Assembly: GCA_030614005.1 (NCBI GenBank)
Contig: JAUWKS010000051.1
Coordinates: 1 to 24,011, forward strand
Reading direction: 5' to 3'
DNA length: 24,011 nt
Source of the DNA: Candidatus Heimdallarchaeota archaeon
GTDB taxonomy: Archaea; Asgardarchaeota; Heimdallarchaeia; JABLTI01
Numbering within the stretch: position 1 is the first letter of the stretch; every line of letters begins with the position of its first letter. The notes under the pieces are model-generated. The model had not been told where the DNA came from. It saw only the letters and a program-made list of their open reading frames with translations, and made no database searches. Both the position numbers and the translations under genes were made by a program. This document shows positions 149 to 23,625 of the stretch, one piece after another.

Positions 149-1372
149 ATGTCTAAACCAGGATTAGAATCAAAAGTAATTGTTTTAGGATTATCACAGT
201 CTGGGAAAACATCTATTCGGCAGGTCATTTTTGAAGGGTTTGCACCTGATTCAACTGCTCTGAATCCAGCAACTGTTAGAATAAACAGAAAGCTGTTTAA
301 TTTAGCTGGAGGAGGCATAAATTTGTTTGATATTGGAGGTCAGACATCATATCTCAACGAAGTGTTTGATCAATATAAAGAAAGAACATTTACAAATGTT
401 AAAGCAGCCATTTTTGTTGTGGATATCTCAGATGCTGCGAATATTATGCGCTCAAAATACTATTTTGATTTAACGCTCAAAAATCTTGCATTATTAAGTA
501 AAAAGTCACGTATCTATATTTTTGCTCATAAAATGGATGTTGTCCAATTGAATAAAAGAAAAGTAATGGTTGAATCAATTGGAGAAATTTTTGAAACAGA
601 AAATTATGATAACGTGAGTATTTTTGGCACTTCTATCTTTGATCAGACTATTTGGGATGCAATGCAAAAAGTTCTTTCATTTGTTTATCCAAGAGATGAT
701 AGCAAAACTAAGGGTATCAAAGATATTGTAGGAAAATTCTCCTTAGAGTTTTTAGCTCTTTCAACTTCTCAAGGATTGGTTCTTTATTCTGAACCAGAAG
801 TTGACACTGGAGTTAATTATTCTAGACTGAAAAATGAGATTACTAAAGCTTATTTCCCAACCAGTTTTTTGAACCAAGCAATATTCACTATTGGAGAATT
901 TAATGCTTTTATGAAAGAATTGGATGATGACTTAGTTGTAACAACAGTATTTCCATCTGATCAAACAGTACCTAAGTCACAGGAATCCTTTACTCAATTG
1001 TGTGAACAAATTAAAACACTATTCAAACCAGATGAACTTCTAGGTCGTGCCAAAGTTAAAATGAGAAAGGCTTTAGAAGACCATCTGAAAAAGAATGGTT
1101 TGAAAAATGTTCATGAACTTGATAGAAAATTAGATGCAAAAATAAGTATCAAATGTGACGTTTGCGGAAAACAAATACAAAAATCGTTATTAGACGTTGC
1201 ACTTGAAAATTCCGAGCAACTTGAAAGAGGGTTAAAAATCTCTATTGGTTTCGGTATTTCTACTGTTGAAATGTATCCACTACACGATTGTATTGAAGGT
1301 ATTCGAGAAATTCCAGTTATTCTAGATGGAAATTTGGAATATCGTCGATATGATAAAAGTAGACCAATTTAA
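149..1372 (+). CDS. Rag/Gtr1-like small GTPase with roadblock/longin-like domain and C-terminal putative Zn-binding domain
   Basis: G1 GLSQSGKT, switch I PATV, G3 DIGGQ, G4 HKMD, G5 TSIFD (Gtr1/RagA pattern). Middle alpha/beta domain (FLALSTSQGLVLYS...LVVTTVF). C-terminal CDVC...HDC. RBS AGGTGA at 139-144, ATG at 149. Confidence 0.88.
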   Translation: MSKPGLESKVIVLGLSQSGKTSIRQVIFEGFAPDSTALNPATVRINRKLFNLAGGGINLFDIGGQTSYLNEVFDQYKERTFTNVKAAIFVVDISDAANIMRSKYYFDLTLKNLALLSKKSRIYIFAHKMDVVQLNKRKVMVESIGEIFETENYDNVSIFGTSIFDQTIWDAMQKVLSFVYPRDDSKTKGIKDIVGKFSLEFLALSTSQGLVLYSEPEVDTGVNYSRLKNEITKAYFPTSFLNQAIFTIGEFNAFMKELDDDLVVTTVFPSDQTVPKSQESFTQLCEQIKTLFKPDELLGRAKVKMRKALEDHLKKNGLKNVHELDRKLDAKISIKCDVCGKQIQKSLLDVALENSEQLERGLKISIGFGISTVEMYPLHDCIEGIREIPVILDGNLEYRRYDKSRPI

Positions 1373-1375
1373 GAT

Positions 1376-1434
1376 AAAAAATTGATGTCTTTTCAAATCT
1401 AATTATGATATGAAAAGGTTAATCTCTTTTTTTT
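1376..1434. terminator. Probable bidirectional terminator between the convergent GTPase genes
   Basis: A6 tract 1376-1381, stem CTTTTCA (1389-1395)/TGAAAAG (1411-1417) with further partial pairing, then T8 tract 1427-1434. Each strand therefore has a U-tract after the stem. Confidence 0.5.
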
Positions 1435-3247
1435 ATTTATTATTTTTTTCATCTTCTTTTTGCTGTACTAAAAATTCTACTAGCCTTTTTACATCGCCTT
1501 TTGAGAGAGTAAGGTTTTCATCTGAATCATCTTCTAAATTGGAAGCTAATAATTCAATCTGTTTTATGTTATATTTTCTTCTCTCTTCTTTCAAGCGGTC
1601 CATAAAACCTATTCTCGTTGGTTTTTTGACTTTTGATTCTACTTTCGTTTCAACTGTTAATTCAGGTTCAATAGACTCTTCAATAATAGGCGCTTGTATG
1701 GGTTCTTCTGTCTCTACAGATACCTCGGGTTGTTCAATTTCTTGCTTTACTTGCGGAGCAATTGATTCTGCTTTTGGTTCTTCTGTTTCCACAGATTCAA
1801 TATGGTCAACTTTTGATTCTGGTATTTTTTCAATTACCGGAGGAATAATTTCCTCTTTTACTTCTGGTGGTGTTTCTGTTACTGGTGGAACAATAGCAGC
1901 AGATATTAGTTCTAGTTCTGCTACAGGTGCTTGAATTGGTTCAGTTGGAGCACTTTTGAGTTCCTCTTTTAATTTATTTAAGAACGTAAAACTACTCTTT
2001 TCTTCTACTGATTCAACTTTTGCTGTTACATCAGGTTTAGGTGTTACTTTCTTGTCAACTTTTTGTTTAGGTGATTTTGTAGCAACTTCTTTAGGTTTTG
2101 TAGCTGTAGACAATACAATGCCCTCTATAGGAGCTTGTTGTGGCAAAGTTGTTCCATCTGTCGATTGAGAAAACTTGCGAATTAATTCATAAAATATCCT
2201 AGTTTTTTCTTCAGTAATAGCGGAGAATGAAGTAATGAGCAAAATATTATTTTCAAGTTTGAATACCATAGCATTTACTTTATTATTAGAAGAAGTGATA
2301 ATGGATGCAGTCGAGCTTTCACCAATTTCATTCTTCTCTTTGATAATTTTCTTGAATTCTTGTAAAGCCGAAATATAATCCATAGATTTCTCTGCACTAA
2401 CAGCTCCTTTTGAAGAGGTCCCAACAATGGGTGAAAACGTTTTGCCATCAATTAGAACTATTTCAACAATGTCATATTCAGATAAATCAAAATTAATTGC
2501 TAGTTTGCCAAAAGTGGGTAAAGTTGCTTGAGGATCAGGATTTAGAAATTCCAATAATTGTGCAATTCTGGGGTCTTCCTCATGTTCCATAATATAGCTT
2601 TGAAATTCATCACTTTCCTCTATTTTTTGACCTATGTTAGTAATTAGTTCAAAGCGTTTTGTATTCATTTTCACTTCATTCATCAAGGAATAAATGACTT
2701 CTTTTAAGCTTTCAGAATAATAAATACTAGATGGTTCAAAACGGATTTTGTATTTTTTATCATCAAATGAATCGGCTATATGACCAAGTAATGGAACTAA
2801 TTCCTCGGGGGGAATTAGATCTACTTTATGGCAAAGAACGGTAATTATACCTTTAGGATTTTCTTTCTTAAACTGACGAATGGTGAAACTAAATCTTCGT
2901 TCTGATTCTTCATATAGATTTGGTTTTGTCATATCTATAATCCAAAAAAGTAATTTCACATTTGAAAACACTAGATGTCGAAAATGTGTTACTGCTTCAT
3001 TCCAGTAATTTTCTTGTCCACCGGAATCGATTATCAAATTAGTTTTTTCTTCATCTAAATATTGACGTTCGTAATGCACTGTTGCCATGTAATCTTCGAC
3101 TTCACTAGGTTTTTTGCCAAAAAAGACTACATCCTTAATTGCTGTTTTTCCTGCTTGCTGTAGTCCCATAAAAAGTATTTTATCCTCTACCTTGGCATCG
3201 GTATCTTTAGATTTTAATTCGTCGATTAGATAGGACATTAGCATCAC
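1433..3247 (-). CDS. Rag/Gtr-like small GTPase with roadblock/longin-like domain and long Pro/Glu/Val/Lys-rich tail
   Basis: G1 GLQQAGKT, switch I MATV, G3 DSGGQ, G4 HKVD, G5 SSIY. Roadblock-like segment (DIVEIVLIDGKTFSPIVG...MVFKLENNILLITSF), then a low-complexity tail. Start is ambiguous (GTG 3247, ATG 3244 or ATG 3238). Confidence 0.88.
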   Translation of the reverse strand: MMLMSYLIDELKSKDTDAKVEDKILFMGLQQAGKTAIKDVVFFGKKPSEVEDYMATVHYERQYLDEEKTNLIIDSGGQENYWNEAVTHFRHLVFSNVKLLFWIIDMTKPNLYEESERRFSFTIRQFKKENPKGIITVLCHKVDLIPPEELVPLLGHIADSFDDKKYKIRFEPSSIYYSESLKEVIYSLMNEVKMNTKRFELITNIGQKIEESDEFQSYIMEHEEDPRIAQLLEFLNPDPQATLPTFGKLAINFDLSEYDIVEIVLIDGKTFSPIVGTSSKGAVSAEKSMDYISALQEFKKIIKEKNEIGESSTASIITSSNNKVNAMVFKLENNILLITSFSAITEEKTRIFYELIRKFSQSTDGTTLPQQAPIEGIVLSTATKPKEVATKSPKQKVDKKVTPKPDVTAKVESVEEKSSFTFLNKLKEELKSAPTEPIQAPVAELELISAAIVPPVTETPPEVKEEIIPPVIEKIPESKVDHIESVETEEPKAESIAPQVKQEIEQPEVSVETEEPIQAPIIEESIEPELTVETKVESKVKKPTRIGFMDRLKEERRKYNIKQIELLASNLEDDSDENLTLSKGDVKRLVEFLVQQKEDEKNNK

Positions 3248-3325: not shown

Positions 3326-6300
3326 TCATTGATATTGCTTGTTTTCCTCTTTGCTTTTCTTTAGGTTATTCTTAGCAGCAATCATTATAATTACAGAACG
3401 TCTGCGAACTTTTTCTAAAAGAACCTTAATTTCTGACAATTCTTTCTTTTCTTTTAGAGCAAGAATGAGCTCATCAATTTCAACGAACATAAATTCTTGA
3501 TTTGCAAGCATAAGTCCACCGAACTCTGTATCAGCAAGAATAATTAAGGAAAGGTTTTCAAATCCTCCTCTTGCGTTTTTATTTTCTAATTGAATACCAT
3601 GAATGAAACCAATCATATCTTCATTTGGTAAATTAATTGAACCAATCCTTCTTTTCTCATCATGTTCCTCAAACCCTAATGATGAGTATGCTTGATCTGA
3701 GATTTTCAATAAGAAATTATCAACACCAATACGCATTCTTCGACTATATTCAGGTTCTTCAAGTGATTGATCCATGATTAGTGGTACTGGTCCTTTTGCT
3801 TGGTCGAATAATGATAGAATAACACCTGGAGAAACTTTCTCAAAGTTCTTATCAATTTCATCTTCTGTGACTTTTTCCATTAACTCCTCAAATGGTCTTG
3901 CTCTTACAAGACGATAAATAACGAAACTTATTATTATTGAAAAAAGAAGACTTCCAGCAATAATTATTATAAGAATAAGAATTGGTAAACCACTGGGATC
4001 AATGATGAAAACGTTTTCAGTATATTCTGTCCCTAAAGGATCATATATATCGCTTCCTTGATAGCTTACAAAAATAACCACATAATCCATTTCTTCTGTC
4101 ATTTCAAATGACGTTTGTGCTAGTCCATTTGCATCTGTTGTAGTCGTTTTATTGATTATATCATTGTATGTTGTAGGTAATTCTGTTGTTGTGGCTACAT
4201 CTTTGTAGATAATGTAAATGCTGAAAGTGATATCTTGAAAAGCTACTGGTGTTCCATCAACTCTAACTAATTCAGCGTAAATAACTAAGTCGTTTCCATA
4301 AACTATTTCGCTACTTGAGACATTTACTCTTAAAATAATTGGAACAGCTAAAATTGTAGCTGATAGAGATGAAGTATCATTCATTGCTCCGAAATAATAA
4401 TTTGATTTAACTAATATTTCGAATAAATGAATGCCTTTTGCAGAAATGAAATCAGCTGAATTGAATGTTACTTCATAAATATAATTAACTGCATCAATTA
4501 ACTCATAAGTGATATCTTGATAGTTACCGTTAATTGAGATGTAATTTAATGCTTGAGCAGAAGAATTTGAATCGTCAAATAGTTTCAAGGATATTGATAT
4601 ATTTTCACCAAATACAACACTAATTGTTGAATCTAGAATAACAAGATTACCTTCCTCTCTTTGAATGAGTATATTGACCGTAATAGATTGTTTATGATCT
4701 TCGAATTGCCAGAATTGAAATTCAATGTATTTGTAAGCACTGTTAGTAACATTAGTTGCATCAATGGTAAACTCATAGGAAGTGGAATTTAGTTGTAGTT
4801 GTGATATTCCTAAATTGAGACTAGTATCTTCTTCTAAGTAAGCTATTGTTAAACCGGTAATAACAGTTTCATTTACTATATCTCTTACATCAACTGAAAA
4901 AGTAAATGATTCTCCATACTTCATAACATAATAATAGTCATCAGAGAAGTCTCCTGGTGTGAGATAATTAATTTCTATATCATCTACTGTGAAAACATAT
5001 TTTACTGTTATTTTGTTTGTATAAAGCCCTCCACCGGTATCATCCTCTAATTCAATGTAAAGAGTGTGAACACCATCGAGTGATGGAATAATGATATCAT
5101 ATGGAGCAGTCAATGTTTGGGAATCATTATCTGTATCCCATCTAAAACTGAATTCTTGTAAGTCAGCAGAGAGTACATTGAAATCAAGGATAGTATTCCC
5201 TCTAACATAAGTGTCATTTGTTATACCTATTAATTCATAATTTGGTGCTTCAAAATCTAGAAAGAATTTATACAAAATAGTGTATGAATTTCCAACTATG
5301 TCTTCAGTGAAGATTGTTATTGTGGCTTCAGTTTCGTCTAAATATTGAATACTTAATGTAGCAGAAAATTCAATGTTTTCAGGTGAAGCTGACCCTTCTA
5401 AATTCCATTGAGAAGTAATAATATCTATAGTGTCATCTGAGAGATCTTCCACTTTGAAATTCAAAAGAGTATCTTCATTAATTTTTGAATTGTTCTGAAT
5501 GAAGTTAAGGAATACAGTTGGGTGAGAATTATCAATAGTAATTGTTAAAGTTTCAAATTCTTCATTACCTAAAGTATCATTCGAGTAAATAACTAAAGTA
5601 GCTGTTCCTTCAATTGATGGTAGTGTAAAAGTATCATCAAATGAAATATAACTTGAACCATTCCATGAATAATAATTATGGAAAGTTGGATCGGCATCTG
5701 TAATTACACACGTTACCTCAGAGTTTGCAGGAACATAATTTGAACTGTCCGGTAAAGTAGCTAAACCACTAATACTCGAGATAGTAATAACAGGAGCTGA
5801 AATATCTATTGTGAATTCAATATAGTACCTGTAATAATTTCCTGCAATATCATAAGCAATAATTGTTAAATTATGAAGACCTTCAGATAGTGAGTTAAGA
5901 TAATAATCTAATGGTTGAGAAAAGGTTTGATTATCTTCTCCATCTATTGAAATAAAGATTTCCATATTTTCAGTTAGAGTCCAATTATCAGCTATTGTAA
6001 ATGATAATACCGTACTATCTAAAAATCTAGATTGATTATAATCAGGCCCAACAACAGATTGGACAATTGTTGGTGCTTCTTGATCTACAGTAAACTCGAA
6101 CACAAATTCATGAAGAACATCAACCGCATCTCCAACCCATACAGTTAGATAATAAGTACCAGGGGTTGAGGAAAGTGCATCAATACCTGATAATGTCAAT
6201 ATATTATTTCCATCAGGTACTCCGTCTTTTGGAGCATCATTTCCCCAAAAATATTTTACTGTACCATTATCATTGATTATTGTTATTTCAATAATTTCTT

Positions 6301-8026
6301 CACCCATATAATATGTACTGTTAACCATGTTTGTTAATTCAATCAGCAGATAAGTTGTATTTGTATAAAATGAATATACCTTAGAGATATCTTGACCAAA
6401 TGTATCATTGGCATATACAGTTAAATTATGCCAACCTTCAGATGTGGGCAAAGTAGTTCTCCAAATATTACCACTCACTTTAGTTGTCCAAGATGCAAAA
6501 CTGTCGCTATCCCATTTATATAAAACATCTATATCTGAATCATCGGTTATTTTAACATCAATATTTTTACCTAAAGGTTGTTGAGTATTATTTACAACAT
6601 TTTCTAAACTAATTACTGGTGCTGAATTATCAAAATTAAAGAAATATACTGAACTTGCAGCGCCAAAAACATCCGTTGTTTCAATAGTCAGATTATGTAT
6701 TTCATTAAAATCTTGATTAGGATAGATATCATAAGGTGAATTAAGGAGTATTTGAACACCACTGTTATCCCATTCATAAGTAGCAAAGATTACATCTACA
6801 ATGGTAAAATTGAGCAATTGCCCATCAGTTACTATCGAATTGTTAGCTGGAGAATTTAAAACAACATTATATTGCGATGTGTCATAACCAACAATAAATG
6901 TTACTTGAGCAATATTATCGAAGAAATCACTTGATTCTACAACCAAAGTATGCCAACCTATTGTCTCAGGTAGAGAAATTTCTACAGATGTTCCAAAACT
7001 AGTAAAAGAATCAGAATCCCATTTATACTTGTCTGATACAGAATTAGAGATAGTTATTGTTGCATTGGTTGATTCAAAATATCTAGTATTATTTGTAAAA
7101 CCAGTGATGTCAATTATTGGGTAACTGTCCTGATACATAAATAATTGCATACCAAATGATTCAATTTGATTGCCTAAATAGTAAGTATTATCAAAAGTAT
7201 CATTTGTATCATCAATACTCCAATCATGTAGATATGTAGTAGATCCAGTTCTAGCTTCAATATTATTATCACTGCCACCAATATATGATGCACTTGATAA
7301 CCTACATTCATAAGTTGTTCGTAATCTATAACCAGCAGGTATGAATAGAGTTGAGACGAGATCTATATATCCTTCCCAAGGATAATTCCAAGTATCATCA
7401 AATCTACTTTGCGTTGATCCAATAGATGTTGTTTGCCCATTGGCTGGATTAAATAATTCTATTGTTACTCTTAAAGTCCAGAGGTTATCTCTTGAGGGCC
7501 TTACATCACCGTTTACCATAAAGTATATTTTTCCTTGAATATAGGAATCTTCAGTAAAAACTGGACTAAAAACTGTTGAATTAATATTATCACCGTTTAT
7601 TGTATTATAGCTTCGCAATTGACCAAAAGTATCGAGTGGATGCCAAAAAACAGCCGGGGTAGAGGAACGATTCCATTGTCTAAATCTTGCATAAACATAG
7701 TCTGAAACAGAGCCTAAATCCTCGTATTGTTCACTTTCAAAGACATAACCATTTTCATCCAAATCAACAAAATTATTTTGAGTAAAATAACCAACAGTTT
7801 TATAGTTACCAGGAGTTTCAACATCATTTTCAACAATTGCTGTTGGAACAAAATCATCCTCTATTGGTTTTTCAGGTAGTGCTAGAGGTTCAATAGCTGA
7901 AATTGTTTCATTGGTATCACTTTCACTAGAAATTTCCGAATAATAATATAATGAACTTATACTTAAAATTACTAGAATTATACTTATAATCTTGGACTTA
8001 TTTTTAATCAACACATTTAACCTCAT
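3326..8026 (-). CDS. Large single-pass surface protein: signal/anchor, Ig-like repeats, transmembrane helix, cytoplasmic longin/uDENN (folliculin/SMCR8-like) domain
   Basis: N-terminal KNKSK + hydrophobic IISIILVILSISSLYYYS. About 8 repeats with Y-x-W ... G-x-H-x-L-x-[VI]-x-x-x-D-x-x-G-N. Many N-x-S/T sequons. TM LPILILIIIIAGSLLFSIIISFVIY (~3914-3988). Cytoplasmic ILSLFDQAKGPVP and NARGGFENLSLIILAD. The ORF track starts at TTG 8116; ATG 8026 or GTG 8014/TTG 8011 (after GAGGT) are more plausible. Stop is TGA at 3326-3328. Confidence 0.85.
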   Translation of the reverse strand: MRLNVLIKNKSKIISIILVILSISSLYYYSEISSESDTNETISAIEPLALPEKPIEDDFVPTAIVENDVETPGNYKTVGYFTQNNFVDLDENGYVFESEQYEDLGSVSDYVYARFRQWNRSSTPAVFWHPLDTFGQLRSYNTINGDNINSTVFSPVFTEDSYIQGKIYFMVNGDVRPSRDNLWTLRVTIELFNPANGQTTSIGSTQSRFDDTWNYPWEGYIDLVSTLFIPAGYRLRTTYECRLSSASYIGGSDNNIEARTGSTTYLHDWSIDDTNDTFDNTYYLGNQIESFGMQLFMYQDSYPIIDITGFTNNTRYFESTNATITISNSVSDKYKWDSDSFTSFGTSVEISLPETIGWHTLVVESSDFFDNIAQVTFIVGYDTSQYNVVLNSPANNSIVTDGQLLNFTIVDVIFATYEWDNSGVQILLNSPYDIYPNQDFNEIHNLTIETTDVFGAASSVYFFNFDNSAPVISLENVVNNTQQPLGKNIDVKITDDSDIDVLYKWDSDSFASWTTKVSGNIWRTTLPTSEGWHNLTVYANDTFGQDISKVYSFYTNTTYLLIELTNMVNSTYYMGEEIIEITIINDNGTVKYFWGNDAPKDGVPDGNNILTLSGIDALSSTPGTYYLTVWVGDAVDVLHEFVFEFTVDQEAPTIVQSVVGPDYNQSRFLDSTVLSFTIADNWTLTENMEIFISIDGEDNQTFSQPLDYYLNSLSEGLHNLTIIAYDIAGNYYRYYIEFTIDISAPVITISSISGLATLPDSSNYVPANSEVTCVITDADPTFHNYYSWNGSSYISFDDTFTLPSIEGTATLVIYSNDTLGNEEFETLTITIDNSHPTVFLNFIQNNSKINEDTLLNFKVEDLSDDTIDIITSQWNLEGSASPENIEFSATLSIQYLDETEATITIFTEDIVGNSYTILYKFFLDFEAPNYELIGITNDTYVRGNTILDFNVLSADLQEFSFRWDTDNDSQTLTAPYDIIIPSLDGVHTLYIELEDDTGGGLYTNKITVKYVFTVDDIEINYLTPGDFSDDYYYVMKYGESFTFSVDVRDIVNETVITGLTIAYLEEDTSLNLGISQLQLNSTSYEFTIDATNVTNSAYKYIEFQFWQFEDHKQSITVNILIQREEGNLVILDSTISVVFGENISISLKLFDDSNSSAQALNYISINGNYQDITYELIDAVNYIYEVTFNSADFISAKGIHLFEILVKSNYYFGAMNDTSSLSATILAVPIILRVNVSSSEIVYGNDLVIYAELVRVDGTPVAFQDITFSIYIIYKDVATTTELPTTYNDIINKTTTTDANGLAQTSFEMTEEMDYVVIFVSYQGSDIYDPLGTEYTENVFIIDPSGLPILILIIIIAGSLLFSIIISFVIYRLVRARPFEELMEKVTEDEIDKNFEKVSPGVILSLFDQAKGPVPLIMDQSLEEPEYSRRMRIGVDNFLLKISDQAYSSLGFEEHDEKRRIGSINLPNEDMIGFIHGIQLENKNARGGFENLSLIILADTEFGGLMLANQEFMFVEIDELILALKEKKELSEIKVLLEKVRRRSVIIMIAAKNNLKKSKEENKQYQ
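4981..7105 (-). repeat. Eight tandem ~90-aa Ig-like (bacterial Ig/Big-type) domain repeats within the surface protein
   Basis: Repeat ends seen in translation: GWHTLVVESSDFFDN, EIHNLTIETTDVFGA, GWHNLTVYANDTFGQ, GTYYLTVWVGDAVDV, GLHNLTIIAYDIAGN, GTATLVIYSNDTLGN, EATITIFTEDIVGN, GVHTLYIELEDDTGG. Each is preceded by a Y/F-x-W (or equivalent) strand. Confidence 0.75.
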
Positions 8027-8185
8027 TTTAACTTTTATTTGATACTTTGAGTCAATATCTATTCTATTGTAATATTTACCTGTGAAATAATAATCTTTAC
8101 AATCACTGTATTTCAATATTTGAAACTAAATAAATTGTGTAACAACTTATCTTTAAATTTAAGTAATTAGGAATAAAAGGTATTT

Positions 8186-15830: not shown

Positions 15831-17771
15831 TTGGAAAGGGAAAAAAAAGAAAAGGGGTGGGTTAAAATAAAAGTAAAATTCCAAGCAATTCTAATGATAC
15901 TAATTGTTTCACAAATTTCATGCAGTGGAGCTTGTTACTCATCATTTGATACAACAGAACAACCCAATTTTACTTTGGTGTTTAAGTCATCTAGTTGGGG
16001 ATTTAGAACAGATTATTGAAACTTACTCATACAACCACTAGCAAAAATTGGAATAAACGTTTATGTTAGTATACATGATTGGTATTGGGGATACTATGGT
16101 TTCCGAGATTACGATATTGTTTATGCTTCTTTCGCTGGTAATGGTGCTGATCCAGACTTTACCGGTGTATACAACGAAAATGGTTCTCTCAATATATTTG
16201 GTTACCACACCGATATGGACTACAATGAAACATTAGGTACAGGTATAAATGAATGGTATATGAAACAAGGCAATTTAATTATGCCTCCGGACAGTAATGC
16301 AAGAATTCAACACTATTGGGACTGGGAGAACTATCTTATGGATAAAATTTGTCCTATGTTACCAACTTTTGCACCAAATTTCTATGAAGCATATTGGGAT
16401 ACTCTGGAAGGATATAACATTTCTAAAGGCATTTTACAGTCTTGGGGTAATATGCATTGGGAATCTAGCCATCAGGGACAGCTAAATACAGATGAATTTG
16501 TTATTTCTGATTATCCATGGTCTGATTTGAATCCATTATTCCAAGATGACACCTCATCAAAGAAAATTAGTGATGCAATAATGGACTCGCTAATTTACTA
16601 TGACAATGATTTAAGCATCCATCCACACTTAGCAGAAAGTTATACGTTCATCAATGACACAACAATTGAAATCGTTTGTCGTGAAGGAATTAAATGGCAA
16701 TCAGATTATGAGGGCAATTTTACCAACGAATTTTTTGATGCAGAAGATATTTACTTCACACTCTACTCTTGGGCAACAGTCTCAAATGATGTAGCCAAAT
16801 ATGATTGGATAAAGAAGATGGAAATTGTCGATGAGATGACTATTAAACTCTACATTGATGGTGACCCATCAACTCAACAAAGTGATCCTTTTGCACCTGC
16901 TCTCACTTACTTAGCAACAAAAATTTTACCAGAACATTATTTGAACCAAACACAATTAGCAGATGGAGTTACTCCGGACATAACACATGCTTCATGGAAT
17001 ACATTTGCAACCCACTGTTTCGGAACTGGTCTATTCGAACTCGGTACCTTCACTGAAGGTGTTGAAACAGAATTAGATGTTTTCGATAGTTGCTGGTTGT
17101 TAGATGTTACTGTAGATAAAACCAACATGGACTTTGTTAACAGATTTGGCGACTTCTCTAACATAATGGATAAATTAAGAATAAAAATCCCCTCTAATGA
17201 TTTAATTCGGTTAAACCTTTTTACATCCGGAAGGTTAGATCACTACGATTTTAATGATCTTCATTCTTTCAATTATAATACCCAAGGAATAGAAGGAATT
17301 AGTTTTCAAAAAGAACTACGATATTACCTTGGATTCTTTGGATTTAATATGCGTCCAGTTAGACCGATTATCGGTAATCCCGAACCATGTGAGGATGATC
17401 CAACAATAACTAAAGGACTTGCTATTAGGAAAGCTATCTGTTACGTAACTAACCGTGAAGAAATAAACGATATAGTTCATGGAGGAGAATATTCAATTAT
17501 AAATTGCCCAATTTATGAGCGAATGGGTATCTGGTGTAATCCAAATATCATAAAATATGATCATGATTTTGAAATGGCTAAATATTACATGGAATTAGCT
17601 GGTTATGATATTCCCGATTATATCTACAATCTGCCTACAAATACACTTTGGATATATATTTTAGCAGGGATTTCCTATGGAATTGGAACTGGAGGAGTAA
17701 TTTTTGGTTTCATTTTCATTCGACGAAAAAAATCAAAGAAGCCAATTGATAACAATTTACAAACTATTTAA
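15831..17771 (+). pseudogene. Family-5 (Opp/Dpp-type) ABC substrate-binding protein, copy 1, interrupted by an in-frame TGA at 16017-16019
   Basis: ORF-track pieces 15831..16019 and 16215..17771 are in the same frame (offset 384). Reading through gives RTDY*NLLIQPLAKIGINV...GADPDFTGVYNENGSLNIFGYHTDM, collinear with RPDYGNLLKQQLARIGINV in the paralogs. C-terminal TM + RRKK. Confidence 0.85.
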
Positions 17772-17832
17772 TTAGATAATTTAACAATAAAACATGGAGA
17801 ATAAGAGTAAAAAAATAGGATTTGTGAAAAAT

Positions 17833-19728
17833 ATGGAGAGAATTAGATTTAAACAATTTATTGGACTATTAATAATAATGTTATTTGCAACGAATTCCAG
17901 TTTTCTTTTTGCTTCAGAAGGTGAAGCGATAGAGCCTTATTTTACTTTGGTTTTCAAAACAAATGGTGGTGGAGTTAGACCAGATTATGGTAACTTCCTC
18001 AAACAACATCTATCAAGAGTCGGAATAAATGTTGATATTATTGTGCAAGATTGGCCAACTTTTGTGAGTGAAATAACAGTCTACCATGATTTCGATATTT
18101 GTTATGTCGCTCTCTCAGGCAGTGGTGCAGATCCAGATTTTACTGGTGTATATAACGAAAATGGTTCTCTAAACTTGTTTGGATACCACACTGATATGGA
18201 CTATAACGAAACTCTTGGCACTGGTTTAAATGAATGGTATATGAAACAAGGCAACTTAATTATGCCTCCTGACAGTAATGCAAGAATTCAACATTACTGG
18301 ATTTGGGAACAATATTTAATGGATAAAATTTTACCCTGTCAACCAACATTCGCACAAAAAGAATACATTGCTTATTGGTCAAATTTAGAAGGTTGGAATA
18401 TAGAAGATGGTATGAAGCAATCATGGGGTAAAATGAACTTTACCGGCACACATGATGGTCAAATAGATCCAACAGAAATAGTTACAGCTAACGCAGCTTG
18501 GTCAAATCTCAACCCATTATTCCAAGATGATACCGTCTCAAATCAAATCAGTAATGCAGTAATGGATTCTCTAATTTATTACGATGAGGATTTAAGCGTC
18601 CATCCGCATTTAGCAGAGAGTTATACTTTTGTTAATGATACAACTGTTGAAATCGTTTGTCGTGAAGGAATAAAATGGCAGGAAGATCCAGATGGATTAT
18701 TCCCAGGAGAAGAATTTGATTCAGAAGACATTTTCTTCACACTATCCGCTTGGGCAACAGTCTCAGATGACACATCTAATTTTGATTGGATTAAGAAAAT
18801 AGAAATTGTTGATTCAACTACAATCAAACTTTACATTGATGGTGACCCATCAACAGAAGTAAATGATGCTTTCGCCCCCGTTATCACTTACTTTGCAAAA
18901 GAAATTCTCCCAGAACATTACTTGAATCAAACACAATTAGTAGATGGAGTTACTCCAGACATAACACATGCTTCTTGGAATACATTTACAACCCACTGTT
19001 TTGGAACTGGTTTATTCGAACTCGGTACCTTCACTGCAGGTGTTGAAACTGAATTAGATGTTTTCGATGACTGCTGGTGGTTAGATCCCGCTGTAGACAA
19101 ATCCAACATGGATTTTGTAGACAGATTTGGTAATTTTACAAGTGACTTAGACACCTGGAGAATCAGAATAATTCCAGACCAACAAACCGCTCTATTTGAA
19201 TTTAATGCCGGAAAGACTGATATCCAAGAAATTACTCAATTTCCGGAGACACGTGAAGATTATACTGAAAATCCAGACTTCGAAGTCCAAAATGAAACCA
19301 GATTCTATTTGGGATTCTTCGGTTATAACATGCGTCCTACCCGACCTGTTATTGGTAACCCAGCTCCTGCACCTGGAGATCCAACAATATCTGTTGGGTT
19401 AGCAGTCAGAAAAGCTATCTCTTACGCACTGGATAGAGTTGAAATCAATAATGTTATTCACAGAGGTGAATACACAATCACAGATCACCCAATCTACTTA
19501 AAATTGGGGATATGGTGTAATCCAAACATTATTCGATACAACCACGATCTCGACTTAGCACGAGAATATATGGAAATTGCAAGTGGACCCACATCAATAG
19601 TAACCACTACGTCATTAGAATCTATAATCGTAGGAATGAATTGGTTCTATTCTCTTAGTGGATTAATCATTTTTCTTGGAATTATAATTATAATCAGAAA
19701 AAAAGGTGAAAAATATGGTAAAAAATAG
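17833..19728 (+). CDS. Family-5 ABC substrate-binding protein, copy 2 (circularly permuted, C-terminal TM anchor)
   Basis: LNPLFQDD...DSLIYYD...HPHLAESY, EGIKWQ...FDSEDIFFT, GTGLFEL, VRKAISYALDR, YNHDLDLAREYM. Signal peptide and C-terminal TM + RKK. ATG 17833 (GTGAAAAATATG, as in copy 3) is preferred over 17794. Confidence 0.9.
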   Translation: MERIRFKQFIGLLIIMLFATNSSFLFASEGEAIEPYFTLVFKTNGGGVRPDYGNFLKQHLSRVGINVDIIVQDWPTFVSEITVYHDFDICYVALSGSGADPDFTGVYNENGSLNLFGYHTDMDYNETLGTGLNEWYMKQGNLIMPPDSNARIQHYWIWEQYLMDKILPCQPTFAQKEYIAYWSNLEGWNIEDGMKQSWGKMNFTGTHDGQIDPTEIVTANAAWSNLNPLFQDDTVSNQISNAVMDSLIYYDEDLSVHPHLAESYTFVNDTTVEIVCREGIKWQEDPDGLFPGEEFDSEDIFFTLSAWATVSDDTSNFDWIKKIEIVDSTTIKLYIDGDPSTEVNDAFAPVITYFAKEILPEHYLNQTQLVDGVTPDITHASWNTFTTHCFGTGLFELGTFTAGVETELDVFDDCWWLDPAVDKSNMDFVDRFGNFTSDLDTWRIRIIPDQQTALFEFNAGKTDIQEITQFPETREDYTENPDFEVQNETRFYLGFFGYNMRPTRPVIGNPAPAPGDPTISVGLAVRKAISYALDRVEINNVIHRGEYTITDHPIYLKLGIWCNPNIIRYNHDLDLAREYMEIASGPTSIVTTTSLESIIVGMNWFYSLSGLIIFLGIIIIIRKKGEKYGKK

Positions 19729-21583
19729 GTTAAAACAATTCATTGGTATATCAATAATAATTTTATTTACTACGAATTCCAGTTTCCTTTTTGCTTCAGA
19801 TGGAGAAGCAATAGAGCCTTATTTTACTTTGGTTTTCAAAACAAACGGTGGAGGAGTTAGACCAGACTATGGCAACCTCCTCAAACAACAACTCGCAAGA
19901 ATCGGAATAAACGTTGATGTTATTATTCAAGATTGGCCAACTTTTGTTGGTGAATTGATCGCTTACCGTGATTTCGATATTTGTTATGTCGGCCTCACTG
20001 GTGACGGTAGTGCAAACCCAGACTTTACTGGTGTCTACAATGTAAATGGTTCTCTAAACTTGTTTGGTTATGATACAAGTATGGATTACAATGAAACATT
20101 AGGTACAGGATTAAACGAATGGTACATGAAAGAGGGAAGACAAATACTTCCAGCTTACTCTCAAGAGAGACTTGAACATTATTGGGCTTGGCAACAACAT
20201 TTGATGGATAATCTTTTACCATGTTTACCCACTTTTGTGCCGAAAATCTATACTGCTTATTGGTCCAATTTAGAAGGATATAATATGTCTGATGGTCTTC
20301 TCCAATCATGGGGAAAAATGAGCTGGGATGGAAATCATTTAGGACAAACAAACACAAATGAAGTAGTAATTTCTGATGCCGCTTGGTCAGATTTAACTCC
20401 CTTTTATCAGGATGATACTTCATCTAGTTTTATTAGTGATGCTCTAATGGATACAATGATCTATTATGATACAGACATGACACCTTGGCCACATTTAGCA
20501 ACAAATTGGACACATATCACCGATACACAAGTGAGAGTTAAACTTAGGGAAGGAATAAAATGGCAACCAGATTATGAAGGTAATTTTACTAATGAATACT
20601 TTGATGCAGAAGATGTCTATTTCAGTTATACTTTATGCGATAGGATAGTTGGTTCACCCTGTGCCCCTTGGCTGGATCATATGGAAATAGTTGATGATCA
20701 TACAATTGATTTCTTTATAGATGGAAATGATTATGAACCTGGAGCACAACCTTCAACTCTTTATCTTGAAAGTTTTGAAAGAAAAATATTGCCCGAACAC
20801 TATCTCAATCAAACCCAATTTCCAGATGGATCTCCCGATATAACTCATGAATCTTGGAGGCTCTTTGCCACAAAAGCATTTGGAACAGGATTATTTTCGT
20901 TAACACACTTTGAGCAAGGTGAAGAAACTATACTTACAGTTAATCCTGAATGTTGGAGATTAAATACTTCAATAACTAGTGATCCTGCATTAGAATGGGA
21001 ACGAAGATTTGGTGATTTTGCTGGTGGACTTAACCAATTACGAATAAGAATTATTCCAAATCAGCAAACCGCTCTACTAGAATTTGAAGCCGGTAAAACA
21101 GATATCCAAGAAATTACTCAATTTTCAGAAACACGTAAAGAAATGATTGCTAGTCCAGACTTTGCTGTCCAAAATGATATCACATTCTATTTTGGTTTCT
21201 TTGGATATAACATGTGCCCAGTAAGACCAGTTATCGGCAACCCTGATGACGCTCCTGGCGATGCTTCAATGACTGTAGGTCTAGCTGTTAGAAAAGCAAT
21301 TAGCTATGCGATAGATTTAGAGGAAATGAATAACATCATTCATGGTGGAGAATATGCTATTACTTATCATCCAATATACATGAAACTGGGTATTTGGTGT
21401 AATCCAAATATCATAAAATATGAACACAATTTGTCTCAAGCAATAGAATACATGACTCTTGCGGGAGGTTATACCCCAACAAATTATACTTCAAAAACAG
21501 GAATAAATTGGATCTATTCCCTAAGTGGAATATTCATTTTACTTGGTATACAAATTATAATTAGAAAGAAGATCGGGAAATAG
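19715..21583 (+). CDS. Family-5 ABC substrate-binding protein, copy 3 (circularly permuted, C-terminal TM anchor)
   Basis: Same motif set as copy 2. GGTGA RBS, then ATG 19715 overlapping the end of copy 2 (translational coupling). C-terminal GINWIYSLSGIFILLGIQIIIRKK. Confidence 0.9.
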   Translation: MVKNRLKQFIGISIIILFTTNSSFLFASDGEAIEPYFTLVFKTNGGGVRPDYGNLLKQQLARIGINVDVIIQDWPTFVGELIAYRDFDICYVGLTGDGSANPDFTGVYNVNGSLNLFGYDTSMDYNETLGTGLNEWYMKEGRQILPAYSQERLEHYWAWQQHLMDNLLPCLPTFVPKIYTAYWSNLEGYNMSDGLLQSWGKMSWDGNHLGQTNTNEVVISDAAWSDLTPFYQDDTSSSFISDALMDTMIYYDTDMTPWPHLATNWTHITDTQVRVKLREGIKWQPDYEGNFTNEYFDAEDVYFSYTLCDRIVGSPCAPWLDHMEIVDDHTIDFFIDGNDYEPGAQPSTLYLESFERKILPEHYLNQTQFPDGSPDITHESWRLFATKAFGTGLFSLTHFEQGEETILTVNPECWRLNTSITSDPALEWERRFGDFAGGLNQLRIRIIPNQQTALLEFEAGKTDIQEITQFSETRKEMIASPDFAVQNDITFYFGFFGYNMCPVRPVIGNPDDAPGDASMTVGLAVRKAISYAIDLEEMNNIIHGGEYAITYHPIYMKLGIWCNPNIIKYEHNLSQAIEYMTLAGGYTPTNYTSKTGINWIYSLSGIFILLGIQIIIRKKIGK

Positions 21584-21592
21584 TATTCCTAA

Positions 21593-21607
21593 TTCTTTTA
21601 TTTTTTT
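21593..21607 (+). terminator. Oligo-T terminator after copy 3
   Basis: TTCTTTTATTTTTTT shortly after the TAG at 21583; archaeal-type U-rich termination signal. Confidence 0.45.
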
Positions 21608-21658
21608 GCGCGTGTTAAATTTCAGTCGAAATCCTTTAGTTTTTGGCATTAAAGAAAG

Positions 21659-21685
21659 TAATATAAACCATAGAGGTTTATATTA
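21659..21685. promoter_or_regulatory. Second copy of the palindromic operator/TATA upstream of peptide-binding gene 4
   Basis: TAATATAAACC-ATAGA-GGTTTATATTA (11-bp arms here). Downstream TATTATTATTTAAACAAC also resembles TATTACTATTTAGAACAAC after the first copy. Confidence 0.75.
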
Positions 21686-21759
21686 TTATTTAAACAACGA
21701 GCATTATAAAATATTTTAGAAGTTGATAAATATAGGAGAAAAAAGGAAAGGTGATAAAA

Positions 21760-23625
21760 ATGGCGAGGTTTAGATTAAAACAAATTGTTGGATTATCAAT
21801 AATAGTTTTATTTGCTATAAATTCTTGTTCTCTTTTTGTTTCAGAAAGTGAAGCAGTAGAACCTATTTTTACTTTGGTGTACAAAACAAATGATCAAGGA
21901 GTTAGACTAGATTATGGTAACTTCCTCAAACAACATTTAGCAAGAATTGGGATAAACGTTGAAATAATTGTTCTAGATTCCATATTATCTTTTACTTGTG
22001 AGTATCTTGGTGAACTTGATTACGATATAATTTATCTCTCTTTAAGTGGTGGTGCTGCAGATCCAGATTTTACTGGCATATATAATGAAAACGGTTCTTT
22101 GAATGTATTTGGTTATCGAACTGAAATGGACTACAATGAAACACTGGGAACTGGCGTAAATGAGTGGTACATGAGACAAGGCAGATTAATTATGCCTCCC
22201 GACAGCTCTGAAAGAGTTCAACATTACTGGGCATGGGAACAACATTTGATGGATGAAATTTGTCCTATGTTACCTACTTTCGCCCCGAAAGCCTACACTG
22301 CTTACTGGTCCAACTTAGAAGGATATGATATGCAAGAAGGTATAAAACAGTCATGGGGTAAAATGGAATTTTCAGGCCTCCATGATGGTCAAATTAAAAA
22401 CACAGAACTAGTAACAACTGACACAGCTAGGGGAGATTTTAACCCATTATTCCATAGTTATTCGTCATCAAAAACAATTAGTAAAGCAATATTGGACTCT
22501 CTTATATTTTATGATAGTGATTTAAGCGTTCATCCACACTTAGCTGAAAGCTATACATTCATCAATGACACAACTGTTGAAATCGTTTGTCGTGATGGAA
22601 TCAAATGGCAGGATGACCCAGATGGATTATTCTTAGATGAATATTTTGATGTTGAAGATGTTTACTTCACACTCTACTCATGGGCAAATCTCTCGAACGA
22701 CCAATATGGTTATGACTGGATAAAGAAGATGGAAATTATCGATGAAATGACTATGAGAATTTATATTGACGGTGACCCAAAAACACCAGAAAATGATCCC
22801 TTTGCACCTGCTCTCCCTCACTTAGCAACGAAAATTCTCCCAGAGCATTACTTGAACCAAACACAATTAATCGATGGAGTTACTCCAGATATCACAGATG
22901 CTTCTTGGGATACCTTTGAAACAAATTGTTTTGGAACAAGTTTATTCGAACTTGATACCTTCACTGAAGATGTTGAAACAGAATTAATCGTATTCAATGA
23001 CTGTTGGTGGTTAGATGATAATATAGACAAAACCAACATGGATTTTGTAAACAGATTCGGTGACTTTACTGGTGGATTAGATTCTTGGAGAATCAGAATT
23101 TTTCCAAATACACAAACTGCTTTATTAGAATTTGAAGCTGGTAGAACTGACCTCGAAGAAATTACCCCATTTTCAGCAAAACGTAAAAAATATGTTGCCA
23201 GCTCAGACTTTGATGTCCAAAACGACACCATGTTCTATTTGGGATTCTTCGGTTTCAACATGCATACCCGCCGACCTGTTATTGGCAATCCAAATCCAGC
23301 ACCTGGTGATCCCTCTATGTCTATTGGATTAGCAGTAAGAAAAGCTATTTCATATGCTCTTGACAGAGAGGAAATTAATAACGTTGTTCATGGAGGAGAA
23401 TACACAATTACAAATCATCCTATCTACTCAAAAATGGGAATATGGTGTAATCCTAATATTATTCAATATAATCATGATCTTGACAAAGCAAGAGAATTCT
23501 TGGCTATCGCAGGATATGAACTAGTCTTAATGGCTAGCATACTTATAGGATTGAATTGGATCTATACATTTAGTGGGATTTTTAGTTTTCTCGGGATTTT
23601 AATTATTGTCAGAAAGAAAAAATGA
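21760..23625 (+). CDS. Family-5 ABC substrate-binding protein, copy 4 (circularly permuted, C-terminal TM anchor)
   Basis: Same motif set. AGGTGA RBS at 21749-21754, ATG 21760. C-terminal GLNWIYTFSGIFSFLGILIIVRKKK, TGA. Confidence 0.9.
   Translation: MARFRLKQIVGLSIIVLFAINSCSLFVSESEAVEPIFTLVYKTNDQGVRLDYGNFLKQHLARIGINVEIIVLDSILSFTCEYLGELDYDIIYLSLSGGAADPDFTGIYNENGSLNVFGYRTEMDYNETLGTGVNEWYMRQGRLIMPPDSSERVQHYWAWEQHLMDEICPMLPTFAPKAYTAYWSNLEGYDMQEGIKQSWGKMEFSGLHDGQIKNTELVTTDTARGDFNPLFHSYSSSKTISKAILDSLIFYDSDLSVHPHLAESYTFINDTTVEIVCRDGIKWQDDPDGLFLDEYFDVEDVYFTLYSWANLSNDQYGYDWIKKMEIIDEMTMRIYIDGDPKTPENDPFAPALPHLATKILPEHYLNQTQLIDGVTPDITDASWDTFETNCFGTSLFELDTFTEDVETELIVFNDCWWLDDNIDKTNMDFVNRFGDFTGGLDSWRIRIFPNTQTALLEFEAGRTDLEEITPFSAKRKKYVASSDFDVQNDTMFYLGFFGFNMHTRRPVIGNPNPAPGDPSMSIGLAVRKAISYALDREEINNVVHGGEYTITNHPIYSKMGIWCNPNIIQYNHDLDKAREFLAIAGYELVLMASILIGLNWIYTFSGIFSFLGILIIVRKKK

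Follow-up and report, generated by a model that had tools for sequence, protein, structure and literature searches.

A giant Ig-repeat receptor with a folliculin-type longin tail and a candidate arginine finger, encoded beside Rag-like GTPases in a Heimdallarchaeon

The DNA analysed here is a stretch of 24,011 nucleotides (the window, meaning the whole stretch) from a Candidatus Heimdallarchaeota archaeon, positions 1 to 24,011 of contig JAUWKS010000051.1 in assembly GCA_030614005.1. Its G+C content is about 31%, and the sequencing runs that contain it are cold-seep metagenomes (DNA), possibly the source sample; no RNA run was among those listed. The minus strand encodes a giant surface protein, referred to here as the receptor, whose gene stands between an atypical small GTPase gene and a pair of convergent genes for Rag/Gtr-like GTPases. 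The protein ends in a longin domain of the class found in folliculin (FLCN), SMCR8 and NPRL2, in which an invariant arginine aligns with R164 of FLCN. The tail may thus be a GTPase-activating protein (GAP) for the neighboring Rag-like GTPases.

The receptor and its topology

Residues are counted in the frame of the longest open reading frame (ORF), which starts at a TTG codon. The true start is probably the ATG at 8024-8026 (Met31), giving a protein of about 1566 amino acids (aa); the orthologue P0002 has 1561. The features of the gene are the following.

3326-8116, minus strand: receptor gene, longest ORF, 1596 codons from TTG
7937-8026, minus strand: N-terminal signal peptide or signal anchor (aa 31-60), K/R-rich and then hydrophobic, as read from the sequence
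3989-7936, minus strand: ectodomain (aa 61-1376, about 1300 aa), rich in N-x-S/T sequons
5237-7129, minus strand: about seven tandem immunoglobulin (Ig)-like beta-sandwich modules (aa 330-960), from AlphaFold2 and Foldseek
3905-3988, minus strand: single transmembrane (TM) helix (aa 1377-1404, 28 residues, hydropathy peak 3.0)
3329-3904, minus strand: predicted cytoplasmic tail (aa 1405-1596, 192 aa), with two juxtamembrane helices, the longin core and a long C-terminal helix
3452-3832, minus strand: longin core (aa 1429-1555), topology beta-beta-alpha-beta-beta-beta-alpha-alpha
3782-3808, minus strand: GP motif F-D-Q-x-x-G-P-x-P (aa 1437-1445), where strand 1 ends and strand 2 begins
3554-3574, minus strand: A-R-G-G-x-E-N motif (aa 1515-1521) in the strand 4-5 loop, with Arg1516 (3569-3571) as candidate arginine finger

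The gene product is a type-I single-pass surface protein, with a long chain of Ig-like modules outside and the longin domain inside. A hydrophobic segment is likewise present at the N-terminus of its homologues. The sequence R-A-R-P directly follows the TM helix, and the 15 residues after the helix contain four K/R, as against none in the 15 residues before it. In the ectodomain there are 32 N-x-S/T sequons, where about 20 are expected from shuffling. The charges after the helix, following the positive-inside rule, together with the enrichment in sequons before it, indicate that the 192-residue tail is most likely cytoplasmic.

The AlphaFold2 model of aa 330-960, built with 13 homologues, is all-beta and consists of about seven sandwiches of about 90 aa, with a predicted local distance difference test score (pLDDT) of 87.2. 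Foldseek searches with this model returned only tandem Ig-like chains, among them the GhpA grappling hook, contactin, CEA, DSCAM and titin, with E-values down to 2.5e-17. The initial annotation of this DNA, which had been made from the sequence and had described an Ig-repeat receptor, was therefore right for this region. Pfam matches on the ectodomain (Big_13, PKD and MG4) were all below threshold, and an ESM Atlas feature search with aa 62-340 gave unnamed clusters only, with scores of at most 0.86.

A longin tail related to folliculin

The longin domain begins about 25 residues past the membrane. Modeling of the tail by AlphaFold2, using an alignment of 72 homologous tails (A1), gave a pLDDT of 94.8 and a predicted template modeling score of 0.90. 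The elements follow one another, in tail numbering, as E27-34, E38-46, H61-76, E86-92, E97-107, E115-125 and H126-151, that is, a five-stranded antiparallel sheet in the longin order given above, and longin structures fill the lists of Foldseek matches. In the PDB, the top match of the tail is the Lokiarchaeal longin 8yqg (E 2.9e-6), followed by chains of Lst4, FLCN, NPRL and FNIP2; in the Swiss-Prot part of AFDB, the first ten are SMCR8, C9orf72, Lst7 and NPRL2 entries, with SMCR8 rather than FLCN as the best. The protein ends about 40 residues past the longin core, in one long helix, and the longin-then-DENN arrangement is not found. The uDENN/longin assignment proposed at the outset can thus be kept as regards the longin fold of the FLCN/SMCR8/NPRL2 'GAP-longin' class, but the DENN domain is missing: the tail is a longin-only module and not an FLCN orthologue.

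The two motifs first noticed in the sequence are present as had been annotated, GVILSLFDQAKGPVPL starting at residue 1431 and NARGG at residue 1514, with Arg1516 encoded by the AGA codon at 3569-3571. Across the A1 tails, to which all conservation counts refer, F1482, R1516 (72/72) and E1520 (72/72) are invariant. Within the GP motif, F1437, Q1439, G1442 and P1445 are each kept in 71 of 72 tails and P1443 in 65; conservation of at least 90% is found for these and for G1431, D1438, D1474, S1478, A1515, G1517, G1518, N1521 and R1571. This conservation is far beyond chance, the catalytic-type motifs being near-invariant although the tails share just 20-30% identity. G1442-P1443 opens strand E38-46, the second of the sheet, as the GP motif does in GAP longins; this placement and the invariance of the arginine support the initial reading. 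The combination of a GP motif at strand 2 with an arginine in the strand 4-5 loop has been described as the shared signature of FLCN, NPRL2 and SMCR8, and as absent from FNIP2, NPRL3 and non-GAP longins (PMC12290439).

The sequence relation to folliculin becomes apparent at the level of families. Compared with the Pfam Folliculin family (PF11704), the tail scores 14.5-14.7 bits (E about 0.03), below the gathering threshold of 23.3. Folliculin is nevertheless the sole Pfam family matched repeatedly, by 32 of the 72 tails, always under the threshold and with a best E-value of 1.8e-4. The same genome encodes three soluble Folliculin-family proteins with F-D-D-x-x-G-P and A-R-G-G motifs, and a hidden Markov model of the tail, run against this genome, finds two of them (E 1.2e-8 and 7e-5). 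In the alignment of the soluble FLCN-like family (A5), most members carry PF11704. Comparison of the A1 tails with A5 by hhalign gave an E-value of 3.8e-5 and a probability of 71%, placing GP on GP (the tail motif on the F-D-D-x-x-G-P of the soluble Heimdall proteins) and ARGG on ARGG.

When the A5 profile was searched against the PDB, human folliculin came top (E 0.057), with the A5 arginine on R164. Combining 22 tails with 17 soluble proteins gave a joint profile (A7) that, among 177,635 PDB sequences, ranked human folliculin (6ulg_L) first, with an E-value of 6.4e-4 and its invariant arginine column on R164, counted from residue 137 of that chain; the second match, 8yqg, has no A-R-G-G, and thus no arginine, at this position. 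FLCN was reached in the PDB by family profiles only: the tail alone and a tail-only profile found nothing relevant among PDB sequences, and neither did the soluble protein L001 on its own. The correspondence of Arg1516 with FLCN R164, which had been proposed from the start, is upheld directly by the A7 alignment and transitively by the A5-PDB and A1-A5 alignments. Judged by its sequence, the domain keeps both hallmarks of the catalytic subunits in eukaryotic longin GAP complexes, namely the GP motif and the arginine at R164.

Elsewhere in the same genome, on contig C74, two soluble Folliculin-family genes (L002 and L003, of 428 and 248 aa) are separated by about 4 kb. One of them is divergent from a gene for a 204-aa small Arf/Rag-like GTPase, a possible second pairing of regulator and GTPase.

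The neighboring GTPases and the distribution of the family

The GTPase genes around the receptor are listed below.

8186-8929, minus strand: atypical small GTPase, Ras247, heading the co-oriented gene set
1433-3247, minus strand: Rag/Gtr-like GTPase, Rag604 (Pfam Gtr1_RagA 3.9e-22, 79.3 bits; PDB Gtr1/RagA 8e-9)
149-1372, plus strand: Rag/Gtr-like GTPase, Rag407, convergent (Pfam Gtr1_RagA 6.5e-33, 114.5 bits; PDB Gtr1 2.7e-23, RagA 3.3e-20)

Both Rag-like neighbors exceed the Gtr1_RagA cut-off of 22 bits, have the G3 sequence D-x-G-G-Q and the G4 sequence H-K-x-D of the Rag/Gtr family, and find Gtr1 and RagA as their best PDB matches. Rag407 is the best Gtr1_RagA match of the genome, the two neighbors ranking first and third of 16. 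Its motifs are GLSQSGKT (G1), DIGGQ (G3) and HKMD (G4), and its PDB alignment with Gtr1 runs into the C-terminal domain, to residues 224-268. In Rag604, which probably starts at Met4 (position 3238), the corresponding motifs are GLQQAGKT, DSGGQ and HKVD, followed by a structured middle domain, a variable linker and a conserved C-terminal segment. The identification of the neighbors as Rag/Gtr-family GTPases, already implied when the locus was first read, is thus confirmed by Pfam, PDB matches and motifs, and their linkage to the receptor is conserved across related loci.

Both proteins also carry extensions. In Rag604, a low-complexity linker rich in P, E, K and V occupies aa ~375-560, the total length of orthologues varying from 501 to 698 aa, and a basic C-terminal segment (aa 560-604) is still reached by phmmer alignments in many orthologues and may be a conserved binding or membrane motif. 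Rag407 has about 100 extra residues after its Gtr1-like part (aa ~300-407), with the pattern C-x-x-C ... H-D-C, which, from this pattern, may form a small metal-binding module; its orthologues are similar in length (409-445 aa). A 174-codon ORF at 1410-1934 on the plus strand, fully antisense inside the Rag604 gene and with no Pfam match, is most likely not a gene.

The 38 loci compared from other Heimdall genomes mostly show Ras247 first, then the receptor in one to three tandem copies, then Rag604 and the convergent Rag407; orthologous triples, usable for paired alignments of tail and GTPases, come from about 25 genomes. Many of these loci come from close kin, and therefore the count overstates their independence. 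The order is rearranged in locus L036, where the Rag pair is still present, and a distant member of the family (P0063, with about 32% identity in the tail) is flanked by two Gtr1_RagA genes, with no Ras247 homologue called there.

This arrangement raises the question of which GTPase the tail serves. Ras247, which is co-oriented with the receptor and kept directly upstream of it in at least 17 loci, has an intact P-loop (GDGNTGKT), with M-P-G-Q in place of DxxGQ and T-H-L-D in place of NKxD; its M-P-G-Q is reminiscent of the T-x-P-G-Q of MglA. The tail might accordingly regulate Ras247, with its MglA-like switch II, or an Arf-like GTPase, as SMCR8-C9orf72 does for Arf, and this would agree with SMCR8 being the best match in Swiss-Prot AFDB and with the many family members that have no Rag neighbor. 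We consider this quite unlikely, given that Ras247 has neither a canonical G3 nor a canonical G4 motif and could be poor at binding or hydrolysing GTP, that the distant P0063 locus keeps two Rag genes with no Ras247 homologue called, and that the profile-based PDB match is FLCN.

A second alternative accepts the Rag-like pair as the partner and assigns a different activity to the tail, which would be a membrane anchor or scaffold, in a Ragulator/EGO role, or a guanine nucleotide exchange factor (GEF)-type longin platform, with the arginine used for binding. Synteny speaks for a partnership and not for a particular activity, the longin domain is held at the membrane some 25 residues from the TM helix, and neither Rag-like protein has an obvious lipid anchor. 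Moreover, longin and roadblock dimers are general GTPase platforms, more often GEFs or scaffolds than GAPs (PMC10933270). Against these points stand the combination of the GP motif with the arginine at the R164 position, which marks catalytic GAP longins and is absent from scaffold and GEF longins (PMC12290439), and the structural neighborhood of the tail, where GAP longins, and not LAMTOR or TRAPP, are nearest. A scaffold or GEF function is in our view unlikely, though worth keeping in mind.

An exhaustive phmmer search with the tail over 1.84 billion representatives gave 81 clusters. Essentially every full-length homologue, of up to 3411 aa, ends in this domain and has a single TM helix 5-40 residues ahead of it. 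In a sample of 300 genomes from across the phylum, matches counted as strong, with E-values below 1e-40, came only from families of the window's own class, Heimdallarchaeia, except for one listed as the same phylum; other classes gave weak matches only, of the strength expected of soluble FLCN-like longins. The closest relatives of the window are metagenome-assembled genomes labelled Candidatus Heimdallarchaeota, the tail being 93% identical to that of isolate HM7_B34 and 54% to that of Ca. Heimdallarchaeum aukensis. A single genome can have as many as 11 copies, the longest open frame has 10,431 aa, and the members go under database names such as 'hypothetical', 'LamG' and 'DUF2341'. In loci of a second large subfamily in other genomes (L006, L007, L046 and L047), receptors stand in tandem with further giant proteins, one gene encoding 8856 aa; these arrays then continue with a conserved protein of ~960-1025 aa without Pfam assignment, adjoining a class-I lysyl-tRNA synthetase gene.

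Ectodomains so huge and varied, with LamG and DUF2341 names and many copies per genome, are typical of adhesins, and the receptor could be mainly a structural adhesin or cell-envelope protein whose longin serves dimerisation, sorting or anchoring to the cytoskeleton, the Rag genes being next to it by inherited gene order; most close loci indeed come from related genomes, and their synteny is not independent. A purely structural role would, however, sit poorly with catalytic-type motifs that stay near-invariant across such divergent tails, or with the recurrence of the Rag pair at P0063 and, rearranged, in L036, and we regard it as improbable.

The remainder of the window contains genes upstream of the GTPase module. 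A Band7/SPFH gene and a 319-aa protein without Pfam match occupy 9952-11788 on the plus strand, the latter with the strings G-Q-D-G and S-T-G-A-G-S-T-A-W, which look NAD-kinase-like, followed by an M17 leucyl aminopeptidase at 11836-13377 on the minus strand; this order is kept in the closest relatives only (L004, L011-L014). Four tandem paralogues of family-5 (SBP_bac_5) solute-binding proteins lie at 16215-23625 on the plus strand, and no permease or ATPase genes are visible beside them within the window. A connection of the M17 aminopeptidase and the four family-5 peptide-binding proteins with the Rag module was rejected, the wider synteny being found in the closest relatives only.

A possible membrane-tethered regulator of a Rag-like pair

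We propose that the receptor tail is an arginine-finger longin GAP that acts on the adjacent Rag/Gtr-like GTPase or GTPases, and we give this reading a probability of about one half. The tail, probably as a membrane-held longin dimer, would dock on one or both of these GTPases at the G domain, and Arg1516 would enter the nucleotide pocket and accelerate GTP hydrolysis. Adhesion, clustering or ligand binding by the ectodomain would in this way set the nucleotide state of the Rag-like pair at the plasma membrane. Both the binding of the tail to a neighboring GTPase and the role of Arg1516 as a catalytic finger are inferred, from the motifs, the alignments and the gene order. As the target, a first guess by analogy with RagC would be Rag604, which is co-directional, lies downstream of the receptor and has long extensions.

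Several points weigh against this reading. The tail remains under the gathering score of the Pfam Folliculin family and is devoid of the DENN domain of FLCN and SMCR8. By E-value, both Rag-like neighbors are nearer to RagA/Gtr1 than to RagC/Gtr2, and therefore the analogy with FLCN acting on RagC cannot name the target. Some receptor paralogues in genomes that do contain Rag genes have no Rag neighbors, and the second large subfamily (P0032, P0039, P0048 and P0054), found in giant surface-protein tandem arrays, has no Rag gene within 10 kb; the Rag linkage is thus not universal. All 72 tails bear the arginine, and no Arg-less partner resembling FNIP or NPRL3 was seen, unlike in the asymmetric eukaryotic heterodimers. 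The invariant arginine could serve binding or stability instead of catalysis. A complex prediction, run with no controls, in which the tail was offered as partner to Rag604 (aa 4-375), Rag407 (aa 1-300) and two GTP, reached a score of 0.00 where the mark was 0.32, and it counts neither way.

The comparison with characterized systems shows where the receptor departs from them. Folliculin-FNIP (Lst7-Lst4 in yeast) is a longin-DENN GAP for RagC/D (Gtr2), whereas the receptor tail is without a DENN domain, and the analysis found no FNIP-like partner devoid of the arginine; where FLCN is soluble and recruited to lysosomes, the tail is held at the plasma membrane by a covalent link to a giant ectodomain. 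SMCR8-C9orf72, a GAP for Arf and Rab, and the NPRL2-NPRL3 pair of GATOR1, a GAP for RagA/B, are multi-domain, soluble and asymmetric heterodimers, unlike the tail, and no sequence-level match of the tail to either of them was obtained. The arginine is present in every tail, tandem paralogues included, which suggests symmetric dimers and not heterodimers of a catalytic and a non-catalytic subunit.

Among prokaryotic systems, the Lokiarchaeal Roadblock-Longin protein (8yqg, longin domain dimer) is fused to a roadblock instead of a TM receptor and has no A-R-G-G at the arginine position. Bacterial MglB-MglA resembles the receptor locus in that a regulator of the roadblock/longin superfamily is encoded beside its GTPase, and Ras247 shares the P-G-Q; the structural similarity of MglB to the tail is much weaker (Foldseek TM 0.32), and MglB is a roadblock that is not known to supply an arginine finger. 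The soluble Asgard longins of the FLCN/SMCR8 type are homologous to the tail and share its F-D-x-x-x-G-P and A-R-G-G motifs (10.1101/2020.10.19.343400; PMC12290439). These proteins are cytosolic and pass PF11704; they have ~250 or ~420 aa, those of the longer kind carrying a C-terminal extension. The members of the receptor family, by contrast, are large surface proteins that end, invariably after a TM helix, in a tail with the longin alone.

A number of reports have dealt with such longins and their GTPases. Liu et al. (2021 preprint, 10.1101/2020.10.19.343400) described NPRL2-like longins of Asgard archaea as well as FLCN-like proteins of the longin-DENN type, and noted explicitly that the operon with the FLCN-like protein has a GTPase from outside the Rag family; Asgard FLCN/SMCR8-type longins with GP motif and arginine finger were reported in Traffic in 2025 (PMC12290439). 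Because such longins are already published, the novelty claimed in the initial annotation was too broad for the domain; of the receptor fusion and of the Rag operon, no description was found in the searched literature. The main texts of both reports contain no mention of a TM fusion or a Rag operon ('transmembrane' occurs zero times in PMC12290439), and the 15 Asgard longins in the supplements of PMC12290439 lie outside this check. In the MK-D1 strain, GTPases and their regulators are generally found outside operons, and, according to the same authors, Asgard small GTPase regulators cannot be matched to their GTPases by genome layout (PMC10933270). The question on which GTPases the GP-motif Asgard longins act is posed in PMC12290439. 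The present locus offers a concrete, conserved pairing, with an FLCN-type longin carrying a candidate arginine finger placed between an atypical GTPase and Rag homologues.

A bolder proposal, tentative and on balance doubtful, is that the state of the Ig-repeat receptor directly controls the tethered arginine-finger longin GAP, as a symmetric Arg-bearing homodimer, on a RagA/RagC-like heterodimer, in a plasma-membrane ancestor of the lysosomal FLCN/GATOR1-Rag switch that would predate TOR and lysosomes. The locus as such suggests, short of proof, that the Rag nutrient switch of eukaryotes had an archaeal forerunner wired to the membrane; with its longin anchored at the membrane under an extracellular domain, it also hints at a way in which a Rag module could have operated before there were lysosomes.

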